Shown here piece by piece: positions 4,529-64,000 of a stretch of 64,000 bases of DNA. Position numbers and translations under genes: made by a program. Within the stretch, counting starts at the first letter, position 1. Each line of letters opens with the position of its first letter. The DNA comes from a virus, in the IMG/VR virus record IMGVR_UViG_3300027791_002264, positions 6,420 through 70,419 of that record. One strand, 5' to 3'. The notes below the pieces were generated by a model, which ran no database searches, was not told the origin of the DNA, and saw only the letters and a program-made list of their open reading frames with translations.

Positions 4529-4872
4529 GGGGGTGACCGGTTTTTGACAATTAGATTGAGATAAAAACTACAGTACTGGGTGATGACCTCCATCAATCTT
4601 AGCCGACAACGCTGAGTTAGCAATGGCTGCCTAAGTAGGTAAGTAGTGCTCATCATATTATTAGTATGCTTGTAAATAATCGAGATGTAAAAGGAAGCAA
4701 GATGTGGTTTAGCAATGTACCCGTTAAACATTGCAACCAATAGAGCCTTTATGATTTTGTGGCCATGGAACATCAAAATCTGATTTTGGAAGTTTAAAGA
4801 AACTTATCCTAAGCTGTAAGAAATGTTTTTAAGGATACTTATTGGACGTGGGTTCGAATCCCACCACCTCCA
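4529..4872 (+). ncRNA. ssrA: tmRNA
   Basis: 5' GGGGGTG pairs with 3' CACCTCC-A including G3:U70; T-arm GTGGG-TTCGAAT-CCCAC; internal tag ORF 4602-4634 ADNAELAMAA-stop. Confidence 0.95.
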
Positions 4873-4876
4873 CAAT

Positions 4877-4949
4877 GCGAAAGTAGCTCAGTCGGTAGAG
4901 CATCAGTTTACCAAGCTGAGGGTCGCGGGTTCGAATCCCGTCTTTCGCT
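4877..4949 (+). tRNA. tRNA-Gly, anticodon ACC
   Basis: Full cloverleaf GCGAAAG/CTTTCGC, U73; anticodon arm TCAGT-TT-ACC-AA-GCTGA; T-arm GCGGG-TTCGAAT-CCCGT. Confidence 0.9.
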
Positions 4950-4963
4950 CAATATTATTAAAA

Positions 4964-5037
4964 GGGGAATTAGCTCAGCTGGCTAGAGCGCCTGCCTTGC
5001 ACGCAGGAGGTCATCGGTTCGACTCCGATATTCTCCA
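4964..5037 (+). tRNA. tRNA-Ala(UGC)
   Basis: GGGGAAT/ATTCTCC-A with G3:U70; CCTGC-CT-TGC-AC-GCAGG. Confidence 0.97.
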
Positions 5038-5064
5038 CAACAATTAAAATTAAATATATAGATT

Positions 5065-48047: not shown

Positions 48048-48162
48048 GGAGGGTTAGCCAAGTGGTAACGGCGCTATACCTTTTAAGGATTGAAAAGCAA
48101 TGCTAGCTGCGCAAAGTAAATCTTAGGTATGGAAATCAGGGGTTCGATTCCCCTACCCACCA
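48048..48162 (+). ncRNA. tRNA-like RNA with ~40-nt insertion in the anticodon arm
   Basis: Acceptor GGAGGGT/ACCCACC-A (one mismatch), D-arm GCC..GGC, T-arm AGGGG-TTCGATT-CCCCT, 49 nt between the anticodon-stem strands. Confidence 0.8.
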
Positions 48163-48242: not shown

Positions 48243-48334
48243 TTGTTAATAACTTTTGAAAATAATTAGAAATTTATGGCCAGAATTGTTAAAAATTGAT
48301 TATATTTATATAATAATTAAAACAAACGGAAACT
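48243..48334 (+). promoter_or_regulatory. Early-type promoter/leader cassette (copy 1 of 6)
   Basis: TTGTTAATAAC + class A promoter + AAACGGAAA before ATG. Confidence 0.85.
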
Positions 48335-49060
48335 ATGGAACATAAAATATTTGAAGTCGGTGGTTGTGTAAGGGACGAAATCTTAGGAGTCCATACAAAA
48401 GACATCGATTTTACTTTTGTATTAAGTAATACTGATATGACAGTAGAAGAAGGGTGGAACAGAATGCTATCTATCCTTGAATCTGACGGATTTAAAATAT
48501 TCCTAAAAACACCAGACTGTTTTACTGTTAGGGCAATGTTTCCTAACGGACATGAACATGAAGGCTTAGTTGCTGATTTTGTTATGTCTAGGAAAGAAAT
48601 AGGAGTTATACCTGGAACTAGAAAACCTATATTAGAATTAGGAACATTGGAGGATGACTTAATCCGAAGAGATTTTACTCTCAATGCCTTATGTAAAGAT
48701 GAGAATGGTAATATCATAGATTTATTTAATGGAGTTGAAGATTTAAATAATAGAATTCTTAAGACTCCGTTACCTCCAATGAAAACATTAATGGATGATC
48801 CATTAAGAATGCTAAGAGGTTTAAGATTTTGCATCACTAAAGATTTTACTATTGATGATGAATTATGGAACTGTATGTTAGAGCCAGGTTTGTTATTTAA
48901 AATGAAAGATGTAGTTTCTCAAGAAAGAATCAGAGAAGAAGTTACTAAAATGTTTAAACATGATACTCTTAAGAGTTTAAATCTTTTAAGAACTATACCT
49001 GGATTGATGGAAGTTATATTAAAAGATGGAATGTGGTTAATGCCAACAACTAAAAAATAA
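48335..49060 (+). CDS. Class II tRNA nucleotidyltransferase (CCA-adding-like, no HD domain)
   Basis: VGGCVRD, DIDF, DLIRRDFTLNAL, DDPLRMLRGLRF, ERI.EE. Confidence 0.92.
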   Translation: MEHKIFEVGGCVRDEILGVHTKDIDFTFVLSNTDMTVEEGWNRMLSILESDGFKIFLKTPDCFTVRAMFPNGHEHEGLVADFVMSRKEIGVIPGTRKPILELGTLEDDLIRRDFTLNALCKDENGNIIDLFNGVEDLNNRILKTPLPPMKTLMDDPLRMLRGLRFCITKDFTIDDELWNCMLEPGLLFKMKDVVSQERIREEVTKMFKHDTLKSLNLLRTIPGLMEVILKDGMWLMPTTKK

Positions 49061-59654: not shown

Positions 59655-59905
59655 AAAAGATTAGGATCATAGAAAGAGATAGGCAATTAACCACATGGGA
59701 GCGTTTAGCTACAAGAATTGGTTATTTAGGAGCAGGTTTATTAATAGCAGGGCAATGGACACTGGAGCCTGTATTATTTGTAATAGGATTTACTTGTGTT
59801 ACAATACAAGTTTCAGTTAGAAAGCAATGGAACTTAGTTGTTCTACAATTAAATGGATTAATCGCATGGACTGTTCATTTCATTAATAGCCTATCAACAG
59901 CATGA
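59651..59905 (+). CDS. Small membrane protein
   Basis: Three hydrophobic segments. Confidence 0.65.
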   Translation: MKKIRIIERDRQLTTWERLATRIGYLGAGLLIAGQWTLEPVLFVIGFTCVTIQVSVRKQWNLVVLQLNGLIAWTVHFINSLSTA

Positions 59906-60135
59906 GATTTAGAACTGGTAAATATGCAGGGATGACATTAGATCATGTTAGAACGATAGCTCCGTGGTACATACAATGGGTACGTGAAAATAGACCAGAG
60001 ATGTTAAAAGAGCGTACACCTAGTAAACCAAAGATTAAGAGTAAACCTAAGAATGAATTTGCAGCAGAAAAACCTGCACCATATCTTGCTTCATTAGAAG
60101 AAGCATTTGGAGTTAACATTCCAATTAATGATTAA
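59902..60135 (+). CDS. Stand-alone F.GKY.G...P.YI.W domain protein
   Basis: Same motif class as the C-terminus of the 3310 exonuclease. Confidence 0.65.
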   Translation: MRFRTGKYAGMTLDHVRTIAPWYIQWVRENRPEMLKERTPSKPKIKSKPKNEFAAEKPAPYLASLEEAFGVNIPIND

Positions 60136-60313
60136 ATTAAAACCTGAAGACTATCAGCAAATGGTAGATAGGATTAAAGTAATAAGTAATGTAGTAGACA
60201 ATAATCTTCAGCAACACCCTGTTGCTAAAATACATACTAACATTAAAGACCACATATCAGCAGCCGTTGATGAATTATATAAAGCAGCAGAGCTAGTTAA
60301 GAAAAATTGTTAA
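60128..60313 (+). CDS. Hypothetical protein (start re-assigned)
   Basis: ATG 60128; LQQHPVAK. Confidence 0.6.
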   Translation: MIKLKPEDYQQMVDRIKVISNVVDNNLQQHPVAKIHTNIKDHISAAVDELYKAAELVKKNC

Positions 60314-60325
60314 AAAATTGTTAAA

Positions 60326-60412
60326 TTGTTAATAACTATATAAAATAATACGAAAGTATGGCCGGAATCGTTTAGAATTGATTATATTTAAATATAATTT
60401 AAAAACGGAAAA
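60326..60412 (+). promoter_or_regulatory. Early-type promoter/leader cassette (copy 2)
   Basis: TTGTTAATAAC, ATTGATTATATTTA, AAACGGAAA. Confidence 0.85.
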
Positions 60413-60601
60413 ATGGCAATTATTGATACCTGGAACAAAAAAGAATTTTTACAAGTAATGTCTGATGTATATAAAGATGCATTTGGTGTAAGACCTAATT
60501 ACCTTGAGTTTAACAAATGGAGTTTAGAACAACTTAAAGAAGAATTCTTAATACTATGTCAAATAGCAGCTGATAATGAACAGCAAGAAAGAGAACAATA
60601 A
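60413..60601 (+). CDS. Hypothetical early protein
   Basis: SDVYKDAFGVRP motif. Confidence 0.75.
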   Translation: MAIIDTWNKKEFLQVMSDVYKDAFGVRPNYLEFNKWSLEQLKEEFLILCQIAADNEQQEREQ

Positions 60602-60602
60602 A

Positions 60603-60694
60603 TTGTTAATAACTTTTTAAAAAAAACAAGAATTTATAGTACAAAACCTAAGAAATAGTATTATATTTAAATATAATTTAAAAAACGGAAAAAC
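60603..60694 (+). promoter_or_regulatory. Early-type promoter/leader cassette (copy 3)
   Basis: Same three elements. Confidence 0.85.
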
Positions 60695-61156
60695 ATGCAA
60701 ATTACAGAACACAGATCAGAATTAGGAAACGGATTTTCAATCACTCAACAAGTAAAAGGTAAGCAATACAAATTTCATGCTCATAACCACGGATTATGCT
60801 GGGATAAAGAATATGACTATCAAGTTATTACAAAATGCCAGGCTGGGTTTTTTACTGTATCAACTGGTAAATCTAAATTAAGTCATATTGTTACAGGTTA
60901 TAAAACAAATAAGTTACATACTGTACAACTTAAAAATGATCATGGTAATTATACACTAACTGCTCTTGCAATGAAAGGTGGTAAGTTCTATATAATAGAT
61001 AAAGAAATCCTAGAATGTTTAACTGTCGGAGATGTTCATAGTAATTTTCCTGCAATGGCTGATCATAATCATTGGAAAAACATCGGTTCTAAAACATGGG
61101 CAGATCCGGCATACGGAATGTTAGTTAACTCTACAGTAGAATTTCAAAATTGTTAA
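60695..61156 (+). CDS. Hypothetical early protein
   Basis: 153-aa ORF with its own cassette. Confidence 0.75.
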   Translation: MQITEHRSELGNGFSITQQVKGKQYKFHAHNHGLCWDKEYDYQVITKCQAGFFTVSTGKSKLSHIVTGYKTNKLHTVQLKNDHGNYTLTALAMKGGKFYIIDKEILECLTVGDVHSNFPAMADHNHWKNIGSKTWADPAYGMLVNSTVEFQNC

Positions 61157-61250
61157 TAACTTTTTGAAAATAACTACAAAAGTATGGCCTGGATAGGATA
61201 AAATTGATTATATTTATATTAATAATAACAATAACAAAAACGGAAACATT
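61150..61250 (+). promoter_or_regulatory. Early-type promoter/leader cassette (copy 4)
   Basis: Same three elements. Confidence 0.85.
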
Positions 61251-61601
61251 ATGAACAACGCATTTGAAACTAAAGCAAACTACAAGGAGTCAGTAACAGT
61301 ATTAAGAACTCAGATTAAATCTCTGAAAAGTTTGGTTAAGTTAGATAAGGCACAACGTGCAACTATCAAACCTATTATAGATGAAAAGGTAAATATGCTG
61401 AAGTACATATCAGGATTGAAAACTTGGAACTTTGGTTTTGAAAGTGGCGGTTGGAATTCTAATGTTGCTAAGACCAAAGAAGAATCAATTAAGAAGGCAA
61501 AGAAAATGTATAACGCGAGTAAGTATACTCAGGTTTCTGAAACTAGTTTCCGAGTTGCTACTAAAGCTGATACAGCAAACTTATTATCGCTGTTTCATTA
61601 A
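61251..61601 (+). CDS. Hypothetical basic early protein
   Basis: GGWNS..AKT.EE motif. Confidence 0.75.
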   Translation: MNNAFETKANYKESVTVLRTQIKSLKSLVKLDKAQRATIKPIIDEKVNMLKYISGLKTWNFGFESGGWNSNVAKTKEESIKKAKKMYNASKYTQVSETSFRVATKADTANLLSLFH

Positions 61602-61694
61602 TTGTTAATAACTTTTTAAAAATAACTAATATTTATAGTTCAGAATCACAATAAATTGATTATATTTATAATATAATTAAAAAACGGAAATCAA
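61602..61694 (+). promoter_or_regulatory. Early-type promoter/leader cassette (copy 5)
   Basis: Same three elements; AAACGGAAATC. Confidence 0.85.
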
Positions 61695-62573
61695 ATGAAA
61701 AAAGTACAAAAAATCAAATCAAGGCTAACTCAGATTAGCAATGTAAAATACGAAAAGGGTTTATTCGAGGCTCACAAAACAAATACTCCATTAGACGGAT
61801 TATTTAGTATCGATGGCGGAGTTCCAAAAGCAACTAACTGGATGGTAGTTGGAGATCCTGGTGTTGGTAAATCTACAGTAACACTAGATATTATTGCAAA
61901 TGCAAAAAAGACTGGATCTAAAGTACTATTCATTTCAGCTGAGATGAACCAGGTGGATCTTTACCTTTATGTTAAAAGATATCCTAAGTTCGGAGAATTA
62001 GATATATTCTTTCCACAAGAAATAGAAGATAATGAATGTCCGAAACAAGTCCTAGAAGAAATCCTAGATGAAGGGTATGATATTGTTCTAACTGATTCCT
62101 TTATTGAATTACAAGAAACAATCCGAGAATCAGGCAGAATGACCAGAAACAGTTCTGAGAAATACTTATTGGATTTAATGTACAAACATAATCTAGGAGC
62201 TAACAAAGGAAAACATTTTACTGCATTCCTTAATATACAACAAGTAAATAAAGGTGGTTCATTTGTAGGATCAAATAAACTGAAACATATGACTACTGGT
62301 ATGATGGAGATAAGGTTCGTAGATGAAAGGGATCAAGAGGAAAGGTATGTTACCTTTAGTAAAAACCGTCGCGGTCATGTCGGGAAGCAAATGTACTTCG
62401 ATCTCTCTGCTAGTGGTAATGTAACATATGATACTGAAAGGTTCAAAAAAGCTGAAGGATTAAAACAATTAAAGAAAGCTGAAAAAGAAAAGATTAAAAA
62501 ATCAGGTTTACAATTCGATGCTCTATTCGGATTAGATAAAGATCAAGAAGAAGGTGAAACAACGAATAAATAA
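61695..62573 (+). CDS. RadA/Sms-like RecA-family ATPase (ATPase domain only)
   Basis: GDPGVGKST, FISAE, LTDS, KNRRG (RadA KNRFG-like); no Zn finger or Lon domain. Confidence 0.8.
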   Translation: MKKVQKIKSRLTQISNVKYEKGLFEAHKTNTPLDGLFSIDGGVPKATNWMVVGDPGVGKSTVTLDIIANAKKTGSKVLFISAEMNQVDLYLYVKRYPKFGELDIFFPQEIEDNECPKQVLEEILDEGYDIVLTDSFIELQETIRESGRMTRNSSEKYLLDLMYKHNLGANKGKHFTAFLNIQQVNKGGSFVGSNKLKHMTTGMMEIRFVDERDQEERYVTFSKNRRGHVGKQMYFDLSASGNVTYDTERFKKAEGLKQLKKAEKEKIKKSGLQFDALFGLDKDQEEGETTNK

Positions 62574-62574
62574 A

Positions 62575-62683
62575 TTGTTAATAACTTTAGAAAAATAACT
62601 TATAATTATAGTTCAGAAACAGTAAAAATTGATTATATTTATACTATATTAATTAAACAAACAAAAACAAAACAGTAAAAATT
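62575..62683 (+). promoter_or_regulatory. Early-type promoter cassette (copy 6, lacks AAACGGAAA)
   Basis: TTGTTAATAAC and class A promoter present; leader reads AAACAGTAAAA. Confidence 0.8.
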
Positions 62684-63841
62684 ATGAAAGAATTAACTAC
62701 ATTATCGCCAACTGCATTCCAAGCCCGTAAAGCTGAAGCCGTTAGGAACGAAGTAATGAGAAAAGAAATCAGTTTATCTGAGTTCAATGTAATCGACAAT
62801 ACTCATATCGAGGTTGACGGAGTAAAAATAGAATTAACCCAATTTGCCTTCAAAAGGTTATTAGGTAGGTTAAGAATACCAACGGCATTTGCTAAAAGGT
62901 TTGAATTAGGATTTGGTTCTGATGGACTAAAGCAATTAGTACAGATGATGAAAACAATGAAATCATCTAAGAATGATCAAACTGTAACTCTGTTGGTTGA
63001 TCCAAGAGCAAAGAAAGTTACTAACATACTACCTGCAGGTTATGCAAGTATTAGTAATGAAGCATTCATTGATTTTGCTGAAGGGTATATCAATCAATAT
63101 GGATTAGAAGTAAAAGACTTCGGATCGGATCCATCAGGTGGAGCTACTATTAACTGTGTATCTCCTAACTCTGTCTTTTCTGTTCCAGGAATGTCGGATG
63201 AAGTATTTAATACTGGTGTAACATTTAGAAATACACCAACTAGAGGATTAGAGGTATCACCTTATTTAAACCGATTGGTTTGTTCAAATGGTATGTCATC
63301 TACATCATTCTCTGAAACATACGGTTTACATGAACTAACTGATAAATCAATTAGAGAATTTAATGATCATATGATTAGCATGGCATCTACAGGATTCCAA
63401 CCTGTAGGATTAGCTGACAAAATTAAATCTGCAAATGATACTGATGCAAGTATTGCTGAAGTACAACGCGCAATGTCCGCTATGTTATCAACTGATAAGA
63501 AAATTGATTTTGAATACATGCAAAGGTATCTACCAATTAACCGAGTTATGAAAGCATACTCTGATATTGGAGCTGAGCCATCTACATTTACTACAAAGCA
63601 ATTACAAAATGCTAAATCAGGTTTATCAATCTGGGAAGTTGTAAACGGTATAACAAACTTTGCCTCTAACGATGAGAAATACAATATAGATGATCACAAA
63701 ACTGGTAATCTAATGGTATCAGCTGGAAACCTTTTAATGAAAAAGAATTTTGATACTGAAGCATTAATCCAATTTGATCCATTTGCAACAACTGGGTTAC
63801 TAACGGAAAATGAATCTGCTCGCCTTATGGGACAAGCATAA
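62684..63841 (+). CDS. DUF932-like protein
   Basis: Y..ISN, G..FRN, RLVCSNGM, W..VNGIT..A. Confidence 0.65.
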   Translation: MKELTTLSPTAFQARKAEAVRNEVMRKEISLSEFNVIDNTHIEVDGVKIELTQFAFKRLLGRLRIPTAFAKRFELGFGSDGLKQLVQMMKTMKSSKNDQTVTLLVDPRAKKVTNILPAGYASISNEAFIDFAEGYINQYGLEVKDFGSDPSGGATINCVSPNSVFSVPGMSDEVFNTGVTFRNTPTRGLEVSPYLNRLVCSNGMSSTSFSETYGLHELTDKSIREFNDHMISMASTGFQPVGLADKIKSANDTDASIAEVQRAMSAMLSTDKKIDFEYMQRYLPINRVMKAYSDIGAEPSTFTTKQLQNAKSGLSIWEVVNGITNFASNDEKYNIDDHKTGNLMVSAGNLLMKKNFDTEALIQFDPFATTGLLTENESARLMGQA

Positions 63842-63848
63842 ATACAAA

Positions 63849-63897
63849 GGATGAGGTTAGTAGTTTAGATTTCCGTTTATCTACTGATCAACAATCC
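63849..63897 (+). ncRNA. Candidate antisense sRNA hairpin
   Basis: Stem GGTTAGTAG/CTACTGATC, outer GGAT/ATCC, loop contains TTTCCGTTT. Confidence 0.55.
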
Positions 63898-63901
63898 ACC
63901 G

Positions 63902-63938
63902 AAGGCATCTGGGTAACATTATCCAGGTGCCTTTTTTT
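63902..63938 (+). terminator. Intrinsic terminator
   Basis: AAGGCATCTGGGTA-ACAT-TATCCAGGTGCCTT followed by T-tract. Confidence 0.9.
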
Positions 63939-63958
63939 GTTAACTAATATATACTAAA

Positions 63959-64000
63959 ATGGATCCAAAGGAAAAAGACTACATCGACGATTACGACGAC
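63959..64000 (+). CDS. Start of ORF running off the window
   Basis: MDPKEKDYIDDYDD... Confidence 0.5.
   Translation, partial: MDPKEKDYIDDYDD

Follow-up and report, generated by a model that had tools for sequence, protein, structure and literature searches.

The DNA analyzed here is a stretch of 64,000 nucleotides (the window), the final 64 kb of a virus record of 70,419 bp (IMGVR_UViG_3300027791_002264) that is itself a fragment. Near its downstream end lies a gene for a 385-aa protein (62684-63841, + strand; the carrier gene) and, between the stop codon of that gene and an intrinsic terminator, a hairpin whose loop is the exact reverse complement of a short box located immediately upstream of five other genes. 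The complementary cores of loop and box are invariant in the relatives examined, the stem of the hairpin covaries, and the arrangement is interpreted here as a candidate RNA element at the 3' end of an early transcript that would base-pair with the leaders of a small set of early genes.

Organization of the locus

The hairpin (hairpin 1, or the anti-box hairpin; 63849-63897, + strand) is separated by 8 nt from the stop codon that ends the carrier gene (63839-63841) and consists of a 9-bp stem (63855-63863/63881-63889; nine pairs, including two G-U) that encloses a 17-nt loop (63864-63880), with an outer GGAT (63849-63852) that pairs with ATCC (63894-63897). The loop contains the anti-box, TTTCCGTTT (63870-63878, + strand; UUUCCGUUU as RNA); the 70.4-kb record contains no other copy of the box in reverse complement. 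The intrinsic terminator that follows (63901-63938, + strand) has a 15-pair stem (63901-63934) and a run of seven T that extends to 63938, and is the only + strand terminator-like site in 59800-64000. The sequence from 63842 to 63940 folds with a minimum free energy (MFE) of -37.9 kcal/mol (z = -6.05), a stability reached by none of 200 shuffles. The 385-aa carrier protein was assigned to phrog_1362 only; Pfam and PDB profile searches returned no significant match, and the AlphaFold model of the protein is of low confidence (mean predicted local distance difference test score of 53.7). At gathering thresholds Rfam 15 has no match at the locus, with the best permissive match scoring 21.2 bits against a threshold of 60.

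The box, AAACGGAAA, occurs in five copies on the + (gene) strand, each of them 1-4 nt before an ATG. One copy (48324-48332) precedes by 2 nt the gene for a CCA-adding tRNA nucleotidyltransferase (48335-49060) and is positioned 15.5 kb upstream of the hairpin. The remaining four are clustered close to the carrier gene, before genes for a 62-aa protein (box 60403-60411, 1 nt before the ATG; gene 60413-60601), a 153-aa protein (box 60683-60691, 3 nt; gene 60695-61156), a 116-aa protein (box 61238-61246, 4 nt; gene 61251-61601), and a RecA/KaiC/DnaB-like P-loop ATPase (box 61682-61690, 4 nt; gene 61695-62573), all on the + strand. The 62-, 116-, and 153-aa products are small proteins that belong to no family. 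In the ATPase leader the stretch complementary to the loop extends to 11 nt (61682-61692), AAACGGAAATC with GATTTCCGTTT. An earlier note, made from the letters of the window alone, had described the five boxes before the genes at 48335, 60413, 60695, 61251, and 61695, the anti-box in a hairpin loop closed by 9 bp and by outer GGAT/ATCC pairing, the strong terminator just downstream, and the 11-nt pairing with the 61695 leader, and all of these elements were recovered at the positions that it gave.

Counting both strands, the window contains six matches to the box word where 0.46 would be expected, and none of 100 shuffled sequences reached six. The tally by strand over the whole record, a count that the earlier note had put forward as a check, consists of the same five copies on the plus strand and one on the minus strand, the antisense copy being found only in the hairpin loop. 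Each of the five box genes and the carrier gene is preceded by a repeated cassette composed of TTGTTAATAAC, which includes a GTTAnTAAC palindrome, and, about 50 nt downstream of each copy, TTGATTATATTTA or a variant of it. The TTGTTAATAAC part is at 48243, 60326, 60603, 61150, 61602, and 62575 on the + strand, with no copy on the - strand, and TTATATTTA is at 48300, 60382, 60661, 61208, 61660, and 62633 (+ strand); the cassettes near the hairpin fall within 60326-62645. By their appearance the cassettes would each combine an operator with an early promoter, the promoter role being a prediction from this layout. The carrier gene (62684) has the cassette and lacks the box in the window.

The window contains approximately 100 predicted genes, all on the + strand. 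Shine-Dalgarno (SD) words are scarce upstream of these genes (GGAG in 2/100 and AGGA in 2/100) and the upstream regions are A/T-rich; SD sequences are not used by the phage. In the 20 nt that precede ATGs, enrichment is strongest for the 5-mers CGGAA, AACGG, and ACGGA, each found in 5 genes compared with 0.5-0.75 expected.

Conservation of the hairpin among relatives

A single antisense 9-mer within 64 kb is not significant by itself (~0.23 expected per strand); the weight of the case comes from the relatives. These were collected through the 385-aa protein and comprised 6 IMG/VR loci, 19 IMG/VR loci obtained with an alignment as the query, and metagenome loci, the latter being the best 80 of 212 relatives found. 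Counted relatives encode a carrier protein 65-100% identical and have at least 60 nt after its stop codon. Excluded from the counts were the metagenome loci L057, L084, L087, L088, and L093, in which the match ends before the end of the gene at a contig end, L001-L006, which duplicate the contigs of L010-L014 and L025 or are truncated, and L096 and L107, which have less than 60 nt after the stop. Some IMG/VR and metagenome loci represent the same contig, and counts are therefore also given as distinct sequences.

The sequence CCGTTT is present within 160 nt after the stop codon in 93/93 related loci (62 distinct contexts), where a counterpart of the hairpin follows the carrier gene, in agreement with the loop conservation on which the earlier note had made its proposal depend. 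When 60 distinct 61-nt contexts were compared, invariance was confined to the columns T.TCCGTTT (63870 and 63872-63878 in the window), against a mean column identity of 46%. The conserved core is in the loop in every family of relatives and occurs 11-100 nt after the stop (median 30 nt), with a run of five T no more than 90 nt after the core in 65 of the 68 distinct untranslated regions (UTRs); the hairpin and a terminator are 4-12 nt apart. Around this core the stems differ from lineage to lineage: GGUUAGUAG/CUACUGAUC in the window, and elsewhere UCAAGGU/ACCUUGA, CCUGG/CCAGG, its mirror CCAGG/CCUGG, CGGG/CCCG, and GGGUGGUA/UACCACCC.

An alignment of all families with MAFFT produced no consensus structure, with the stems falling in different columns, and since a single structural alignment failed, covariation was counted for each family. 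Family A, to which the window belongs, has compensatory changes in 3 of 4 predicted pairs. In family C, 94% of cells are paired and covariation amounts to 0.342 compared with 0.163 in shuffled alignments, none of 500 of which was as high; sliding the partner by one to three columns reduced the value to 0.12 or less, and the middle pair alone occurs as AU (4), GC (3), and UA (2). A covariance model built from family C matched families A and B only through the loop (10.7-14.1 bits), which indicates that the structure is kept while the sequence outside the loop core is free to change.

Two variations on the hairpin repeat the same complementarity and underline how important the loop is. In the most distant relative fetched (65% protein identity; L005 2290-2335 = L025 2286-2346), UUUCCG is repeated three to four times in tandem in the loop. 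Five relatives (L044 2379, L056 3272, L058 2124, L067 169, and L085 954) have a second anti-box hairpin, CAUAAAUUUCCGUUUAUG, with a 5' arm that includes the stop codon of the ATPase gene and a structured stretch and T-run after it. The window has no copy of the CAUAAAUUUCCGUUUAUG type after 62573. The ATPase gene of L005/L025 has one box before the ATG and another directly after it.

Some smaller features of the same region can be described here. Between the stop codon and the hairpin, four distinct relatives (L015 3262-3285, L016, L018, and L095) have CAATTGATTATGAAATAAA, in which the ten bases that open the promoter-like cassette (AATTGATTAT) recur; because of this echo, the hairpin RNA may have a promoter of its own at CAATTGATTATGAAATAAA. 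The word ACGGA, found at 63802 in the window and thus within the final 60 nt of the carrier gene, was considered as a mask for the loop and was rejected as chance, as it is present in only 5/50 distinct tails.

Position and orientation of the box among relatives

The conserved core of the box, AAACGGA (usually with an A after it), and that of the loop, UCCGUUU (usually with a U in front), span the same 7-8 positions on opposite strands. On the gene strand AAACGGA was found in 144 distinct contexts, of which 115 have an ATG that opens a reading frame of at least 40 aa within -12 to +14 nt, while 9 further contexts are in the leader of the carrier gene itself, 13-20 nt before its ATG. The earlier note had stated that the carrier gene shares the cassette and lacks the box: the cassette is shared, and the absence of the box holds in the window and fails in these 9 distinct relatives. 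For the complementary word TCCGTTT, 69 distinct gene-strand contexts break down into 52 of hairpin 1, 5 of the second hairpin, 8 of conserved D-P-F codons, and 4 others. Orientation is strict, in that leaders always have the sense word and 3'-UTR hairpins always have the antisense word.

The distance from box to ATG is 0-6 nt and the distance from the box to the promoter-like TATATTTA is 12-30 nt, from which it follows that the box tracks the ATG and not the promoter. The box also occurs before genes that lack a cassette and, in some lineages, at codons 3-5 (ATGGCAAAAACGGAAA) of the ATPase gene. In 41 distinct orthologous ATPase leaders that were not selected by motif, the box is before the ATG in 26 and only after the ATG in 1; of the rest, 13 are box-less and abut an upstream gene, and 1 has a mis-called start.

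An IMG/VR scan with the promoter-plus-box pattern returned at least 120 loci. Among the matches listed, 105/120 have only one start-region box and lack homologues of the six early proteins, and of the 78 that are distinct about half were judged by eye to have an extended cassette, the rest being chance-like. None of the extra TCCGTTT copies among the listed matches is a hairpin. Five further contigs of 53-91 kb have one or two true cassette-plus-box starts each; no anti-box hairpin was found on these contigs, which are fragments and so do not establish its absence, and two candidates proved to be D-F-R-F codons. The promoter-plus-box module (…TTGATTATATTTATAATATAATTAAATAAACGGAATATG…) is also seen before a recurrent gene starting with MTEYT or MTELT on many other viral contigs (among the pattern matches L229-L348, e.g., L238, L253, L266, L324, and L340). 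As the module recurs on other viral contigs, the box regulon would reach beyond the cluster next to the hairpin.

Proposed pairing between loop and leaders

When 100 start regions were ranked by the energy of their duplex with the loop, the five box genes occupied ranks 1-5, with -10.4 to -15.3 kcal/mol and 9-11 contiguous pairs, and the ATPase leader was first (-15.3 kcal/mol). The box leaders are short, A-rich, and almost devoid of predicted structure. Combined with the conservation described above, these features suggest that the 3' end of the early transcripts base-pairs with the tags in the leaders, acting in trans and perhaps also in cis, the most likely consequence being that ribosomes are kept from loading. 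We assign this interpretation a probability of about 60%. What the earlier note had proposed at its core, a 3'-UTR RNA with a loop antisense to a shared leader box, is strongly backed by the invariant complementary cores and the covarying stem, present in all relatives examined, and falls short of demonstration; the timer and shut-off that the note added to it are conjectural.

Several results weigh against this interpretation. In a genome-wide duplex scan the boxes were not the best sites and shuffled loops did equally well or better, and as a result duplex energy alone was discarded as evidence; even within start regions, 24/200 shuffled loops reached the fifth-best energy of the real loop. 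The chance expectation for one antisense 9-mer has been given above, and at the level of 7-mers the box and anti-box words are not over-represented in the record, with 12 and 2 copies compared with means of 7.9 and 2.1 for words of the same composition. Hairpin 1 by itself is only moderately better than sequences with shuffled flanks (mean z = -1.69, with 25/60 below -2), and although 57/60 real sequences can form a helix of 5 bp or more, so can 53% of shuffles. The MFE fold includes a weak inner helix in the loop, UAGAU/GUUUA, made of A-U and G-U pairs, which leaves UUCC apical and covers part of the core in the family of the window. Metatranscriptome contigs (runs X1, X2, X3, and X5, from three marine studies) cover parts of 60300-64000, including 63452-63891, but being contigs that have neither ends, strand, nor level, they reveal no discrete RNA such as the ~90-nt species of the earlier note. 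The host is also a prediction.

Most of the evidence on joint change of loop and box falls on the same side. The earlier note had looked to compensatory changes between loop and leaders, and none was found, as neither core varies. A network with multiple targets would be expected to keep its seed unchanged, since all partners would need to change together, although this is an argument rather than a test. The flanks of the core do not co-evolve, with a contiguous match of 9.39 nt for a box and its own loop compared with 9.29 nt for foreign loops. The single loop variant, UUUAUCCGUUU, in which A replaces the U before UCCGUUU, is accompanied by AAACGGAU boxes in 5/9 pairs compared with 10/127 for the common loop; this variant, however, comes from a single clade, and the U is retained in two relatives that have these boxes.

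In the proposed mechanism the loop 5'-UUCCGUUU-3' would pair with its complement 5'-AAACGGAA-3' in the leaders of early genes. The predicted duplex spans roughly -1 to -13 from the AUG and would thus be inside the ribosome landing site of mRNAs without an SD sequence. The ribosomes of the Bacteroidia have been reported to initiate without SD pairing (PMC6847099, PMC9976891), and SD-less mRNAs to depend on an open, A-rich leader (PMC6847099). A precedent for such repression is the GibS small RNA (sRNA) of Bacteroides thetaiotaomicron, which is described as repressing SD-less start regions (PMC7366714). A block of initiation would be the most likely effect, with cleavage of the duplex also possible, and the build-up of a stable 3' end could impose dose-dependent negative feedback on a small early regulon or shut it off with a delay. 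Delayed or dose-dependent repression is thus the favored outcome, and stabilization or activation through 5'-3' contact is the main alternative within the pairing model. The sequences and their positions, the invariance of both 7-8-nt cores, the covariation of the stem, and the strict orientation are observed, while pairing inside the cell, release of a short RNA, and an effect that represses rather than activates or stabilizes are inferred.

The transcript that would carry the loop is probably not a single one. The earlier note had treated the hairpin as the end of the last early transcript only. Because there is no + strand terminator-like site between the cassettes at 60326-62575 and the terminator at 63901, the hairpin is probably the common 3' end of nested early transcripts from the four box-bearing promoters, and the anti-box RNA would therefore be at least as abundant as its local targets. 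Action in cis would also be possible in nested transcripts that share one terminator. Action in trans, by contrast, would be needed for the box at 48324, given its distance from the hairpin, and for the boxes on other contigs without a nearby anti-box. A bolder proposal, which we regard as tentative and more doubtful than probable, is that an uncultured group of marine phages (at least 212 metagenome loci, probably infecting Flavobacteriia) uses a private code, in which the label AAACGGAA on dispersed early genes is read by a master loop, UUCCGUUU, made at the common 3' end of early transcripts and in some lineages duplicated or repeated in tandem, and early translation is turned off as the loop accumulates; the label may even be a substitute for the SD sequence.

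Alternative explanations

The hairpin could instead be a signal at the 3' end that is bound by a protein or processed, for antitermination, stabilization, or processing, following the logic of boxB or a coat-protein operator, with the box a separate element and the complementarity a coincidence. A conserved loop on a covarying stem also fits this explanation, as do the unexceptional duplex energies and a terminator within 4-12 nt of the hairpin. Coincidence would nevertheless have to produce two independently conserved cores of 7-8 nt that are exact reverse complements and whose boundaries of invariance coincide, and to do so again in the second hairpin at the stop codon of another gene and in the loop with tandem repeats. 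No candidate binding protein was identified, and this explanation is considered improbable. The pairing could also be real but confined to one molecule, where the 3' loop and the 5' box of the same nested transcript would meet to stabilize or activate it by protecting its ends or tuning its translation. Co-transcription is plausible with no + strand terminator-like site between the cassettes and 63901, and interactions between 5' and 3' UTRs have been described for the icaR and hbs mRNAs (PMC3868564, PMC5737220). The box at 48324, however, is separated from the loop by many genes, boxes are found on other contigs with no anti-box nearby, and a position over the ribosome landing site favors repression over activation; a purely intramolecular role appears unlikely on these grounds.

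Two explanations do without the RNA duplex. If the 9-bp word were the double-stranded DNA site of one asymmetric protein, for example a repressor bound just downstream of early promoters in either orientation, its presence on both strands and the proximity of the boxes to promoter-like cassettes with a GTTAnTAAC palindrome would be accounted for. Such a site would not be expected to have its orientation tied to context, sense in leaders and antisense in 3' UTRs, to track the ATG at a variable 12-30 nt from the promoter, or to occur where there is no cassette and inside the first codons, and a covarying stem has no role in double-stranded DNA; a DNA site is highly unlikely. The chance is smaller still that the box is a degenerate SD-like or ribosome-contact element or a CsrA-type ANGGA site, and that the hairpin is unrelated or in competition with it. 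The core AAAcGGA does resemble AAAGGA, and the 16S 3' tail (...CACCTCCTTTCT) in the fetched Bacteroidota loci could pair with AAA and GGA around a bulged C. The box, however, has no continuous complementarity to the 16S 3' tail in 41 Bacteroidota 16S genes, and TCCGTTT is absent from 41/41 of the extracted genes. The C that would bulge against the tail is unvaried in the 27 of 41 distinct ATPase leaders that carry the box, where it pairs with a G of the loop. GGAG is upstream of only 2/100 genes, no bS21 gene was found in the phage record, and the absence of SD pairing reported for Bacteroidia ribosomes (PMC6847099, PMC9976891) points in the same direction. The CsrA-like alternative raised by the earlier note received no support, as PF02599 was found in 0/5 complete Bacteroidota chromosomes and in 0/1 phage record, the latter 24% complete, with the controls Escherichia coli, Bacillus subtilis, and Thermotoga maritima positive.

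Relation to known regulatory RNAs

Base-pairing between the phage loop and its leaders, if it occurs, would place the element near the trans-acting sRNAs derived from 3' UTRs in enterobacteria, such as CpxQ, DapZ, SroC, and MicL. Like these, the phage element is located directly after a stop codon, shares the intrinsic terminator of its mRNA, and has a short conserved seed and several targets in start regions. Unlike these, it comes from a phage whose own early genes are the predicted targets, its seed is in the loop of a hairpin, and the target is a dedicated invariant box in place of the SD sequence. A further difference from the enterobacterial sRNAs is that the host phylum, the Bacteroidota, probably lacks Hfq and ProQ (PMC7366714). 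Three of the features that define a base-pairing sRNA embedded in a 3' UTR are present at the locus: a position downstream of a stop codon with its own terminator, a conserved seed in a loop, and 9-11 nt of complementarity to targets. The layout corresponds to a known type, from which the probable host phylum, the SD-less predicted targets, and the dedicated tag set it apart.

Phages also have antisense regulators, RNAs that are cut from phage transcripts or overlap with them and that pair with phage mRNAs in the control of developmental genes. Among them are the c4 RNA of P1/P7 and the CI RNA of P4, and in c4 loop sequences act against a ribosome-binding region. To our knowledge, riboregulation by phage RNAs has been described for few phages other than temperate ones that infect enterobacteria or vibrios. 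The c4, CI, and OOP RNAs belong to temperate enterobacterial phages, act in immunity or lysogeny decisions, and have one or two targets, unlike the element described here, which would govern a multi-gene early regulon in an uncultured marine phage through an invariant code of 8 nt. It is further distinguished from the known phage antisense RNAs by its probable host phylum, by the lack of SD sequences, by a dedicated 8-nt tag dispersed over early genes, and by an anti-tag that is duplicated or repeated in tandem. For OOP, the antisense RNA encoded by lambda, pairing with a phage mRNA is documented (PMC12197685). In the available text of the same 2025 review of phage RNAs the string 'bacteroid' has 0 occurrences (PMC12197685), and nothing on such an element in Bacteroidota phages was found in the open-access literature.

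Closer parallels in one respect or another come from chromosomal RNAs. GibS, as presented in PMC7366714, has a seed complementary to SD-less initiation regions and would operate in the same kind of cell as the phage element, probably one of the Bacteroidota, with pairing a prediction in the phage case. GibS is chromosomal and intergenic with an unstructured 5' seed of 30-50 nt (PMC7366714), whereas the seed of the phage element measures 8-11 nt and is part of a hairpin loop where an mRNA ends; no sequence relation between the two was found, with no Rfam family near threshold. The icaR mRNA of Staphylococcus aureus also has a 3'-UTR motif complementary to a 5'-UTR ribosome-binding region, and in the phage the two may be part of one transcript as well. 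The icaR motif is an anti-SD sequence that acts on its own mRNA (PMC3868564), unlike the phage box AAACGGAA, which is not an SD sequence and is shared by several genes, at least one of them far away, and is missing from the carrier gene of the window. The 5'/3'-UTR interaction of the hbs mRNA (PMC5737220) resembles the possible cis mode of the phage element.

Should the proposed pairing be correct, this would be the first regulatory RNA with multiple targets to be predicted for a Bacteroidota-type phage and an example of translation control on SD-less mRNAs, and it would provide a handle on the timing of early genes in a phage group without a cultured member. The pair formed by an 8-nt tag and a loop would then be compact and portable, and could perhaps find further use in Flavobacteriia and Bacteroides as an orthogonal switch of translation.

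The phage and its probable host

CheckV rated the record as 24% complete and a related contig of 181,663 bp as 65% complete, and on these two ratings the full genome is probably near 280 kb. The phage has no close counterpart among GenBank phages: megablast of 60300-64000 returned no match, and a protein search with the 385-aa protein found one uncultured 484-kb record at 23.6% identity and no cultured relative. A scan of genome contigs with the CCA-adding enzyme likewise found no relative.

The host is probably a member of the Flavobacteriia. The window encodes a transfer-messenger RNA (tag peptide DNAELAMAA) followed by tRNA-Gly(ACC) and tRNA-Ala(TGC) at 4529-5038, and the tRNA-Ala is identical at 75/75 positions to the rRNA-spacer tRNA-Ala of a Muriicola locus and at 74/75 to that of many other Flavobacteriaceae. 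As the comparators were all Bacteroidota, this identity fits a flavobacterial host and stops short of proof. A further RNA gene may be present at 48048-48162, where Rfam called a 115-nt tRNA (42.4 bits) that is absent from the ARAGORN output. The call may represent a tRNA interrupted by an insertion or an intron, and directly downstream of it come the cassette and box that precede the gene for the CCA-adding enzyme.

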